Source: Escherichia coli (GTDB lineage: Bacteria; Pseudomonadota; Gammaproteobacteria; Enterobacterales; Enterobacteriaceae). From it: 64,000 nt of DNA. The notes below the pieces were generated by a model. That model was not told the DNA's origin, ran no database searches, and worked only from the letters and a program-made list of their open reading frames with translations. Below, piece by piece: positions 52,184 to 55,253 of the stretch; positions within the stretch are counted from its first letter, which is position 1, and every line of letters starts with the position of its first letter. The stretch lies in the NCBI RefSeq assembly GCF_022846255.1, contig NZ_AP025682.1; one strand, given 5' to 3'. Position numbers and translations under genes: made by a program.

Positions 52184-53134
52184 TTACAACCAGTTCTTCC
52201 GCTTAAAGTAGAGATACGGTGCCAGGCCCGCGAGGATCATAAAGATAATCGCGCCTGGGTAGCCGAAGCTCCACTTCAGTTCTGGCATAAACTCAAAGTT
52301 CATCCCGTAGCTGGAAGCAACCAGCGTCGGCGGCAGGAACACGACGGATACCACCGAGAAGATTTTGATGATGCGGTTCTGCTCGATATTGATAAAGCCC
52401 ATCGCCGCCTGCATCAGGAAGTTCACCTTCTGGAACAGGGATTCGTTATGCGGCAGCAGGGATTCGATATCTCGCAGGATTTCACGCGCCTGCTCCAGTT
52501 GCCCACCCGGTAAACGCGCCTTGCGTACCAGGAAGTTGAGCGCACGCTGGGTATCCATCAGACACAGGCGAACTTTCCAGCCGATATCTTCCAGTTCCGC
52601 CAGCGTAGAGAGCGCTTCGTCATACTCATCGCCCTGATGCCCTTCCATAATCACCCGGCTCAACTGCTCCAGGTCGCTATAGATATTTTCAATTTCATCT
52701 GCCAGCTGTTCGATTTTGGTTTCGAACAGATCCAACAGCAGCTCGTAGGCGTTACCGTCTACCATCGACTGGCTACGGGCACGCATACGATACAGACGAA
52801 AAGCGGGCAGTTCACGCTCACGCAAAGTAAACAGACGACCATCACGGATGGTAAATGCCACAGTGGAGTTACCGGCGTGATCTTCCGCATCTTCAAAGAA
52901 GAAGAAGGAGTGAATATGCAGGCCGTCATCGTCTTCAAAGAAACGTGCCGATGCTTCGATGTCTTCCAGTTCCGGGCGGGTTGCCAGGCTCTGGCCAAGT
53001 TCAGATTGTACGCGCAGTCGCTCGTCGTCGTCCGGTTCGACAAGATCAATCCATACTGCATTTACAAGGGGTTGTGACTCTTCGACTTCCAGCCGGGTCA
53101 GTCGGTTATTTTCCAGTTGAAATGCGCTCAGCAT
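52184..53134 (-). CDS. corA: magnesium/cobalt transport protein CorA
   Basis: 316-aa product from [16 protein letters not shown]; C-terminal YGMNF motif present. Confidence 0.95.
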
Positions 53135-53503
53135 GACCGGGACTCCCAATGCTTAAAATATCGGACAGTTCGGTGGGCACACAGAAACAAATTGGGTTTC
53201 AGACCATTAAACAGCCTGACTCAGCGCGACGGGAAAAATTGAGGTCGCTGACAACCGCTAAGGCTATCAGCAAAAAGGGATAGCCTTAGGAGTTGATCCT
53301 GGATGACAGGATAGTGAGCCAGTATCTACTGGGTGTGTCCAAGGCGAATGTCCTCTTAGAGTGATCGTGCGCGCATGTTACGCCAGCAAAATTTTGCCGT
53401 CAACACGCAACAGAACACCACAGAACAATAGTTGAACTTCGCGCTTTTTGGTACTCGTCAAGGTCGCTAACAGGATAAAAAAATCCCACATCCAGGACCT
53501 ATA

Positions 53504-54268
53504 ATGGCGCATCGGCTACTCATTGGTAAAGGAATGATCACCTTGAATCTCAAACGGATTTTTCTCGCCCTCACCTTACTTCCCTTGTTTGCTGTTGCCG
53601 CTGATGATTGCGCACTCTCAGATCCGACGCTGACCGTACAGGCGTATACCGTTAATACTCAAACAGAGCGGGTGAAAATGTACTGGCAAAAAGCCAATGG
53701 CGAAGCGTGGGGAACGTTACATGCGCTGCTGGCGGATATGAATAGTCAGGGTCAGGTGCAGATGGCGATGAACGGCGGCATCTATGATGAAAGCTATGCG
53801 CCGCTCGGTTTGTACATCGAAAACGGTCAGCAGAAGGTGGCGTTAAATCTCGCTTCAGGTGAAGGGAATTTCTTTATTCGTCCTGGCGGCGTGTTTTATG
53901 TCGCGGGAGATAAAGTCGGCATCGTTCGTCTGGATGCCTTTAAAACCAGTAAAGAGATTCAGTTTGCGGTGCAGTCAGGGCCATTGTTGATGGAAAACGG
54001 TGTAATTAATCCGCGTATTCATCCCAACGTCGCCTCACGTAAAATTCGTAACGGTGTTGGGATTAATAAACATGGGAACGCCGTGTTTTTGTTGAGCCAG
54101 CAGGCGACAAATTTTTATGATTTTGCCTGTTATGCCAAAGCAAAACTGAACGTTGAGCAGCTGCTTTATCTTGATGGCACAATTTCACATATGTATATGA
54201 AAGGCGAGGCAATCCCGTGGCAACGCTATCCTTTTGTCACCATGATTTCCGTCGAGCAGAAAGGTTAA
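53504..54268 (+). CDS. yigE: DUF2233-domain periplasmic protein YigE
   Basis: 254-aa ORF with signal peptide. Confidence 0.85.
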   Translation: MAHRLLIGKGMITLNLKRIFLALTLLPLFAVAADDCALSDPTLTVQAYTVNTQTERVKMYWQKANGEAWGTLHALLADMNSQGQVQMAMNGGIYDESYAPLGLYIENGQQKVALNLASGEGNFFIRPGGVFYVAGDKVGIVRLDAFKTSKEIQFAVQSGPLLMENGVINPRIHPNVASRKIRNGVGINKHGNAVFLLSQQATNFYDFACYAKAKLNVEQLLYLDGTISHMYMKGEAIPWQRYPFVTMISVEQKG

Positions 54269-54350: not shown

Positions 54351-55253
54351 ATGAAAAAAACGCTCGCAACATTATTTTTATTAACCTGTCTGGGGTCATC
54401 ATCCGCTTATGCGGATAACGCTTTGATTTTACAAACGGATTTTAGCCTGAAAGATGGTGCCGTCTCGGCGATGAAAGGGGTCGCTTTCGGCGTTGACCAT
54501 AATCTTAAAATATTTGATTTAACACACGAAATTCCACCGTATAACATCTGGGAAGGCGCTTACCGCCTGTATCAGACTGCCAATTACTGGCCGCAAGGTT
54601 CGGTGTTTGTTAGCGTGGTCGATCCTGGTGTTGGTACAGAGCGTAAATCGGTAGTGCTGAAAACCAAAAATGGTCAGTACTTCGTTTCACCAGATAACGG
54701 TACGCTCACGTTGGTGGCGGAATCGCTGGGTATTGAGAGCGTCCGGCAAATCGATGAAAAAACCAACCGTCTGAAAGGTTCCGAAAAGTCATATACCTTC
54801 CACGGTCGTGACGTGTATGCCTACACCGGTGCACGTCTGGCTTCCGGGGCGATCACGTTCGAGCAGGTGGGGCCAGAGCTTCCTGCAAAAGTTGTCGAAC
54901 TTTCTTATCAGAAAGCCAAAGCAACAAAAGGTGAAGTGAAGGGCAATATCCCGATTCTCGATATTCAGTACGGCAACGTCTGGAGCAATATCAGCGACGA
55001 GTTGCTGAATCAGGCAGGAATCAAACTCAACGACACGTTGTGTGTGACCATTTCCGAAGGTTCCCAGCAAAAATACGCAGGGAAAATGCCGTATGTCGCA
55101 AGCTTCGGCGATGTGCCGGAAGGCCAGCCGATGGTGTATCTGAACAGCTTATTGAATGTTTCCGTGGCGCTGAATATGGATAATTTCGCGCAGAAACATC
55201 AGGTTGCGTCTGGTGCTGACTGGAATATTGATGTGAAGAAGTGCGCTAAGTAA
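54351..55253 (+). CDS. DUF62-family SAM hydroxide adenosyltransferase-like protein with N-terminal signal peptide
   Basis: 300 aa; motifs TDFS, VVDPGVGTER, SPDNG, TFHGRDVY, QYGNV parallel the archaeal/bacterial SAM hydrolase (fluorinase/chlorinase) fold; N-terminus MKKTLATLFLLTCLGSSSAYA is a Sec signal peptide. Confidence 0.8.
   Translation: MKKTLATLFLLTCLGSSSAYADNALILQTDFSLKDGAVSAMKGVAFGVDHNLKIFDLTHEIPPYNIWEGAYRLYQTANYWPQGSVFVSVVDPGVGTERKSVVLKTKNGQYFVSPDNGTLTLVAESLGIESVRQIDEKTNRLKGSEKSYTFHGRDVYAYTGARLASGAITFEQVGPELPAKVVELSYQKAKATKGEVKGNIPILDIQYGNVWSNISDELLNQAGIKLNDTLCVTISEGSQQKYAGKMPYVASFGDVPEGQPMVYLNSLLNVSVALNMDNFAQKHQVASGADWNIDVKKCAK

Follow-up and report, generated by a model that had tools for sequence, protein, structure and literature searches.

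The long corA-yigE intergenic region of Escherichia coli and the corA leader: promoter, upstream reading frame and two alternative folds kept across Enterobacterales

Genes and features at the locus

The window analysed here is a stretch of 64,000 nucleotides of Escherichia coli DNA (RefSeq contig NZ_AP025682.1), in which corA and yigE are divergent genes separated by an intergenic gap:

52184..53134, minus strand: corA, with its ATG at 53134 (RefSeq start; aligned in 80 of 80 orthologous loci)
53135..53503: the divergent corA/yigE gap, 369 bp
53504, plus strand: ATG annotated as the start of yigE (RefSeq)

A TTG at 53149 is merely where mechanical extension of the open reading frame ends; RefSeq and the alignment of all 80 loci place the start at the ATG at 53134. 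A sequence-only reading of the window had placed about 370 bp between the two starts, which agrees with the measured 369 bp, and had guessed that a gap of this size may encode a structured corA leader or a small RNA. Among the nine divergent gaps in a 50-kb stretch of a matching, annotated E. coli genome, this one is the largest, with the other eight measuring 110-261 bp; it is locally the longest, yet not extreme. When a 651-bp query over the gap was used, 5,443 E. coli records matched, identity was at least 99% in 5,430 of these, and the RefSeq features under the query are yigE, corA, and a small gene, ysgD (“YsgD/CorL family protein”). Over all 369 bp the sequence is that of E. coli K-12 MG1655, so that published experiments on K-12 apply directly to the window, and the functional claims made here for the corA leader rest on this sequence identity.

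The neighbouring genes were also inspected. yigE (53504-54268) belongs to Pfam NAGPA, phosphodiester glycosidase. Between yigE and uvrD, at 54351-55253 on the plus strand, lies a gene for a 300-aa protein of the SAM hydroxide adenosyltransferase/SAM hydrolase family (Pfam SAM_HAT_N, SAM_HAT_C); since K-12 has a 146-bp gap between yigE and uvrD, this SAM hydrolase gene is strain-variable accessory DNA. On the other side, the best-matching genome, E. coli O157:H7 TR01, has genes for DUF943 and DUF3289 proteins after corA, together with a fragment, from the 3′ end, of a second CorA-family gene, unlike the window, where different ORFs and rarD lie downstream of corA, and this difference makes the corA 3′ flank a variable spot.

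Conservation of the region across Enterobacterales

We compared 80 corA loci, one genome per species, spanning Escherichia, Citrobacter, Enterobacter, Klebsiella, Kosakonia, Cedecea, Serratia, Rahnella, Yersinia, Hafnia, Edwardsiella, Pectobacterium, Dickeya, Brenneria, Lonsdalea, Erwinia, Pantoea, and Mixta; counts given at the level of the leader use 74 distinct leaders. Across the 80 loci, identity to the window is 0.2-0.5 upstream of ~53410, 0.83 in the bin 53410-53401 where the -35 region begins, 0.99 in the bin 53380-53371 that holds the -10 region, and 0.57-0.99 through the leader as far as the corA ATG. Conservation across enterobacteria, which the sequence-only reading had named as a check, is thus present from ~53410 to the corA ATG in the 80 Enterobacterales loci, and the 276-bp block 53135-53410 is conserved order-wide whatever the upstream neighbour gene.

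The upstream neighbour is seldom yigE, which adjoins corA in three of the 80 species, all of them Escherichia. The distance from the end of uvrD to the corA ATG downstream is 290-370 bp in most genera, and the uvrD-corA gap is shorter than 500 bp in 55 of the 74 loci with a placeable uvrD end. This spacing, together with the conservation of the block, indicates that the long upstream region is ancestral and belongs to corA, and yigE looks like an insertion in the Escherichia lineage, later than the ancestral corA upstream region. The segment next to yigE is as follows:

53411..53503, no strand assigned: yigE-proximal segment of ~93 bp (identity 0.2-0.5 in 80 loci)

Judged by this comparison, the ~93 bp beside yigE are Escherichia-specific, and 53411-53503 presumably carries the yigE promoter. 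A perfect TATAAT is present at 53500-53505 on the plus strand, after an A-tract, and overlaps the annotated yigE ATG at 53504, which is without a Shine-Dalgarno sequence. An in-frame ATG at 53534 follows AAAGGA and opens a typical signal peptide (MITLNLKRIFLALTLLPLFAVA); the true start of yigE may therefore be 53534, 30 bp downstream of the annotation, and the gap would then measure 399 bp. The yigE start region is 98% identical among Escherichia species, so divergence there is small, and the literature on yigE together with corA yielded no yigE transcription start.

These data bear on the simplest account of the gap, in which it would be a mere spacer with two ordinary promoters and regulator-binding sites. 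While the 93 unconserved bp beside yigE could be just that, a 276-bp block conserved across the order, next to any upstream neighbour, refutes this account for 53135-53410, and for the gap as a whole we give it practically no credence.

The corA promoter and leader RNA

The conserved block begins with the corA promoter, and the leader RNA follows from it:

53403-53398, minus strand: -35 hexamer TTGACG of the corA promoter (consensus scan; conservation onset)
53380-53375, minus strand: -10 hexamer TAACAT of the corA promoter (consensus scan; 80-species identity)
about 53368-53135, minus strand: corA 5′ leader RNA, ~232-234 nt (predicted from the -10 position; published oligos)

In a scan for sigma-70-like consensus, the corA promoter has 9 of 12 consensus matches and a 17-nt spacer, and this corA-strand site (53403-53375) is the sole sigma-70-like promoter match within 52900-53800. 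From the -10 hexamer, the corA transcription start is predicted at ~53366-53368. According to the names and sequences of the supplementary oligos of Vezina Bedard et al. 2024 (PMC11552253), the first leader base is the G of GATCACTCT, which is G53366. The +1 position used here is a prediction and the published numbering is uncertain by 1-2 nt; leader numbering in this text takes A53368 as nt 1. The length of the gap comes from the corA promoter, which sits ~234 nt upstream of the corA start codon, so that some two thirds of the gap (~234 of 369 bp) is corA mRNA 5′ leader.

The minimum free energy (MFE) of the corA leader is -79.4 kcal/mol, below all 200 dinucleotide shuffles (z = -3.45). The earlier guess of a structured corA leader was right, as the leader is folded, conserved across Enterobacterales, and already characterised in Salmonella and K-12 (PMC5314796, PMC11552253). 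We are confident, to a degree that leaves little room for doubt, that the element in the gap is the already known corA leader/corL Rho-dependent attenuator, annotated in RefSeq.

An Rfam cmscan of 52800-53900 at E <= 10 matched no family, its best matches being implausible miRNA and snoRNA models; the hits to mir-76, an Aggregatibacter sRNA, and snoRNAs were set aside as chance-level at this permissive threshold. In the same scan, neither the Mg sensor (mgtA leader) model nor the M-box model matched. Rfam thus has no model by which a covariance-model scan, one of the checks suggested in the sequence-only reading, could independently confirm membership.

The same results bear on whether a separate small-RNA gene, equipped with a promoter and terminator of its own, lies on one or the other strand of the gap. 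In vitro, premature termination yields the leader as a discrete RNA of ~210-220 nt (PMC11552253), and one hairpin with a U-run looks terminator-like in a consensus scan. However, no Rfam family was found at E <= 10, the single promoter-like site is the corA promoter, the conserved block runs unbroken into the corA start codon, and the part of the gap outside the leader is unconserved beyond Escherichia. We regard such a gene as highly improbable, and the small-RNA alternative of the sequence-only reading found no support.

The upstream reading frame corL

Within the leader lies a short reading frame, annotated in RefSeq and missed in the sequence-only reading:

53342-53286, minus strand: corL/ysgD upstream ORF (uORF) with TTG start, 18 codons (MDTPSRYWLTILSSRINS), and TAA stop (RefSeq; b4799 in K-12)
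53357-53351, minus strand: corL Shine-Dalgarno sequence AAGAGGA, 8 nt upstream of the TTG start

Across the 74 leaders, the GAGGA core of the Shine-Dalgarno sequence is invariant, the start is TTG in every case, and the length is 18 codons in 70, with 17, 19, or 25 codons in the others. The nine N-terminal residues MDTPSR(Y/C)WL are nearly invariant. The synonymous third positions of codons 2-9 likewise show little or no variation, which points to a constraint on the RNA sequence. The C-terminal half of corL varies freely in sequence and keeps its length, a pattern to be expected where the peptide counts for less than the path of the ribosome and the point at which it stops. Translation of corL has been detected by Ribo-RET and tagging (bioRxiv 10.1101/511675) and also by PIRT-seq (PMC12350097).

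On one hand, a tagged protein that can be detected (bioRxiv 10.1101/511675) and a conserved N-terminal MDTPSR(Y/C)WL would suit a CorL/YsgD that acts in trans as a small protein, with the leader structure being secondary. On the other hand, the (nearly) invariant third positions of codons 2-9 speak for an RNA constraint, and the C-terminal half is free in sequence and fixed in length, so that we find an action in trans improbable.

Other reading frames in the region were examined and rejected. PIRT-seq has shown translation in a frame overlapping ysgD, named “CDS177”, with an AUC start (PMC12350097). Two candidate frames of this type (53221-53368, minus strand) are open for 27-32 codons in E. 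coli and are not conserved in other genera; from species to species the start codon changes and the length ranges over 1-63 aa. An antisense 44-aa ORF (53149-53283, plus strand), which has an ATG in 43 of 74 leaders and lengths of 0-67 aa, and another 44-aa ORF (53378-53512, minus strand), which spans the promoter and the unconserved segment, were treated as spurious.

Two mutually exclusive folds of the leader

The RNAalifold consensus of the 74 leaders gave stems A, B, and E, and the single-sequence MFE fold gave stems C and D:

53344-53284, minus strand: stem-loop A (OFF), CCUUGG nt 25-30 (53344-53339) with CUAAGG nt 80-85 (53289-53284)
53271-53247, minus strand: stem-loop B (OFF; rut left exposed), GCUGAUAGCC nt 98-107 with GGUUGUCAGC nt 113-122
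53289-53258, minus strand: stem-loop C (ON), perfect 11-bp stem nt 80-90/101-111 with an extension nt 74-78/113-117 (MFE fold)
53248-53226, minus strand: stem-loop D (ON), GCGAC nt 121-125 with GUCGC nt 139-143, enclosing the pyrimidine-rich CCUCAAUUUUUCCC
53218-53200, minus strand: stem-loop E, CAGGCU nt 151-156 with GGUCUG nt 164-169

Pairing in these stems is kept across the 74 leaders. Inside stem A lie corL and a pair of small hairpins (nt 37-41/46-50 and nt 58-62/68-72). Pairing reaches 99.8% in the closing stem of A, and 100% and 92% in the two inner hairpins, the second of which shows a compensatory exchange of UA and AU (UA in 29 sequences, AU in 28). Stem B is paired in 100% of cells, with one of nine pairs compensatory and four of nine changed on one side. 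Stem C is 96.8% paired. Stem D is 100% paired with compensatory changes in three of its five pairs, and stem E is 94% paired with two pairs changed on both sides. Taken together, stems A, B, and E are 97.8% paired, and in a control where the 3′ partners were slid by 1-3 columns, pairing was 19-43%. Compensatory changes were found at 9 pairs in the OFF fold and at 21 pairs in the full MFE fold; most stem pairs are invariant and covariation is confined to a minority of them, which is expected because one sequence serves two folds and a reading frame.

The assignments also agree with published mutations. The positions of stem A agree with the Salmonella mutations M1*/M1, the stem assignments as a whole match M1*, M1, and M2, and stem E corresponds to the Salmonella hairpin 152-172 (PMC5314796). 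In addition, the published ON-state mutant oligos strengthen exactly the extension of stem C, nt 74-78/113-117 (PMC11552253, supplement).

Because stems A and C share CUAAGG and stems B and C share GAUAGCC, the A+B and C+D folds cannot coexist; the segments common to the two folds are CUAAGGCUAUC and GAUAGCC. The substitution A104G (53265), present in about 25 leaders, keeps pairing in both stem B (AU to GU) and stem C (UA to UG). As read from the aligned leaders, it is the one tolerated change at a position whose base has a U as partner in stem B as well as in stem C, a signature of dual structural constraint. Leader nt 31-100 (53338-53269, minus strand) are C-rich, G-poor, and rut-like, with the excess of C over G in 30-nt windows peaking at +9 for nt 51-80, where there are 9 YC dinucleotides, and this composition fits a rut site.

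The sequence-only reading had seen no strong terminator-like hairpin in the gap. This holds in so far as there is no canonical intrinsic terminator, but strong hairpins are present, including a perfect 11-bp stem (53289-53279/53268-53258). Termination that depends on Rho, which the sequence-only reading had not considered, explains why no intrinsic terminator is visible in the corA leader. A trp-type attenuator, with an intrinsic terminator made of stem B and the U-run 53240-53234, is the alternative here, and we give it a very slim chance. The terminator consensus scan flagged the hairpin 53273-53245 with its U-run, calling stem B followed by CCUCAAUUUU terminator-like, in a search that found 2 sites where 0.7 were expected, and ~24% of transcripts terminate in vitro without Rho (PMC11552253). 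However, the U-run is interrupted and several bases off the stem, its region is the least conserved in the leader (0.57 identity, with indels), and the mapped ends lie ~80-90 nt further downstream and reach 55% with Rho/NusG (PMC11552253).

A candidate long-range helix

The MFE fold of the full-length leader contains one further helix:

53353-53345 with 53172-53163, minus strand: candidate long-range helix, GGACAUUCG nt 16-24 with CGAACUGUCC nt 197-206 (MFE fold)

The 5′ arm is the ribosome-binding region of corL, and the 3′ arm lies ~30 nt upstream of the corA ATG. When folds were computed independently by partition function, the helix formed with a probability of ~1 in the window and with high probability in most of the 74 leaders, those of Pantoea, Erwinia, Dickeya, and Lonsdalea among them. 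The GGA of the corL region has another partner in Serratia and Pectobacterium, a UCC directly behind the corL stop. Genera differ in the sequences that make up the inner helix (UUCG:CGAA, CUCG:CGAG, ACGC:GCGU, AAUGC:GCGUU). Column-wise, 88% of cells are paired and covariation is modest, and at the level of pairs the covariation of the helix across the 74 leaders is not above that of shuffles. The MFE fold also pairs leader nt 28-54 with nt 146-195, which together with the helix makes a long interrupted duplex; a pairing of C47-A54 with U148-G155, noted by Kriner & Groisman, overlaps the inner part of the nt 28-54/146-195 pairing.

These folds raise the tentative possibility that the full-length leader closes on itself through a conserved long-range helix between the corL ribosome-binding site and the segment near corA. 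With moderate evidence behind it, the helix is a candidate rather than a finding. No description of it was found in the text of the corA-leader papers compared here, though it may already be drawn in a published figure.

Mechanism of attenuation

In Salmonella, stem B exposes rut and stems C and D sequester it, efficient corL translation favours stem B, and stem E sets where Rho terminates (PMC5314796). Corresponding data exist for K-12, where rut elements flank stem B, corA-lacZ and corA mRNA drop as Mg2+ goes from 20 to 50 μM, and this effect requires the 5′ region and not the promoter (PMC11552253). RNA polymerase occupancy falls from the leader to the ORF, a fall relieved in rho R66S (ChIP score 3.3), and Rho/NusG lift in vitro termination from 24% to 55% at U211 and G216-U220 (PMC11552253). 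Converted to the window, these ends are as follows:

53158-53147, minus strand: Rho/NusG-dependent transcript ends U211 and G216-U220 (PMC11552253, converted; +1 uncertain by 1-2 nt)

Locking the leader in the OFF state silences corA, and locking it in the ON state weakens regulation; corA rises when the corL start UUG is replaced by AGG and falls when it is replaced by AUG, and corL-lacZ is up 1.7-fold at higher Mg2+ (PMC11552253). Regulation by Mg2+ is partly relieved in rho R66S, from 3.3-fold to 2.4-fold, and the corL-AGG mutant retains 1.3-fold regulation (PMC11552253); the partial relief and this residual regulation indicate that other factors contribute. For the window, three points come from this literature on the identical K-12 sequence: that termination depends on Rho, that the leader responds to Mg2+, and that corL and corA are inversely coupled. 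A 2025 review lists corA among conditional Rho-dependent attenuators/terminators (PMC12360218).

In this published mechanism, higher intracellular Mg2+ favours efficient corL translation. By the logic of the ribosome footprint, which we propose here, an efficiently translating ribosome would then block stems A and C: the corL stop codon falls within the 5′ arm of stem C as well as the 3′ arm of stem A, so that a ribosome there would cover both and leave B free. Stem B forms, C-rich rut sequences remain single-stranded, and Rho loads and terminates around leader nt 211-220, just ahead of corA. With poor corL translation, stems C and D form, rut is sequestered, and RNA polymerase reads into corA, while stem E tunes the position of Rho action.

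A different way to select the fold would be a direct metal-sensing riboswitch, in which binding of Mg2+ (or Mn2+), rather than corL translation, makes the choice. The 1.3-fold Mg2+ regulation kept by corL-AGG would be consistent with this, direct sensing is left open by the authors, and for mgtA RNA folding alone suffices in vitro (PMC11552253). However, the Rfam Mg sensor and M-box models are without a match, corL start-codon mutations shift corA expression strongly (PMC11552253), and the start and length of the uORF are kept in the 74 leaders, which argues that translation belongs to the mechanism. We therefore consider direct sensing unlikely.

Comparison with known systems

The corA leader/corL of Salmonella enterica and K-12 (Kriner & Groisman 2015, 2017; Vezina Bedard et al. 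2024) is the same element. The leader in the window is identical in sequence to that of K-12 and has the uORF, stems A-E, and the location upstream of corA in common with it. Nothing detectable sets the element apart; the difference is confined to the genomic context, as this strain has an extra SAM-hydrolase-family gene beyond yigE.

The mgtA leader with mgtL is similar in several respects: it also precedes a Mg2+ transporter gene, has a uORF in a three-way junction and two exclusive folds, and in Salmonella undergoes Rho-dependent termination (PMC11552253). However, the mgtA leader (Rfam Mg sensor) has no sequence or model similarity to the corA leader, mgtL is rich in proline and acidic codons whereas corL has one proline, and the mgtA promoter is PhoP-controlled whereas the corA promoter is unregulated. 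In addition, Rho involvement was not detected for E. coli mgtA (PMC11552253).

Other leaders share the use of a short ORF. In tnaC-tnaA, speFL, and mgtCBR, as with corL, a ribosome that translates or stalls on a short leader ORF decides the access of Rho to rut (PMC12360218). In tnaC the stalled ribosome itself shields rut, whereas in the corA leader the ribosome acts indirectly by choosing folds. The trp and his attenuators resemble the corA leader in that translation of a leader peptide picks between alternative hairpins, but they use an intrinsic terminator and codon-specific stalling, while the corA leader relies on Rho and lacks any run of regulatory codons.

Implications

As a discovery, the element carries little weight, since the corA leader is in RefSeq, its biochemistry has been worked out in Salmonella and E. 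coli, and it appears in recent reviews of Rho attenuation. Our analysis directly observed the anatomy of the leader, its conservation, its uORF, and the maintenance of both folds. What this adds is that the promoter, the uORF, and both folds are kept across 74-80 Enterobacterales species, and that the yigE side appears to be a recent Escherichia insertion. Because the corA leader is absent from Rfam, covariance-model scans will go on missing it.

The analysis also adds a testable candidate, the long-range helix that would join corL initiation to the 3′ end of the leader. If the helix is real, its 3′ arm would emerge only at the termination/pause window, so that it could silence corL on transcripts that have escaped, and such silencing would lock in the termination decision. 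Lim et al. 2012 is said to concern RNase III control of corA mRNA; if the helix is real, it, or the duplex it forms part of, could be the substrate of this control.
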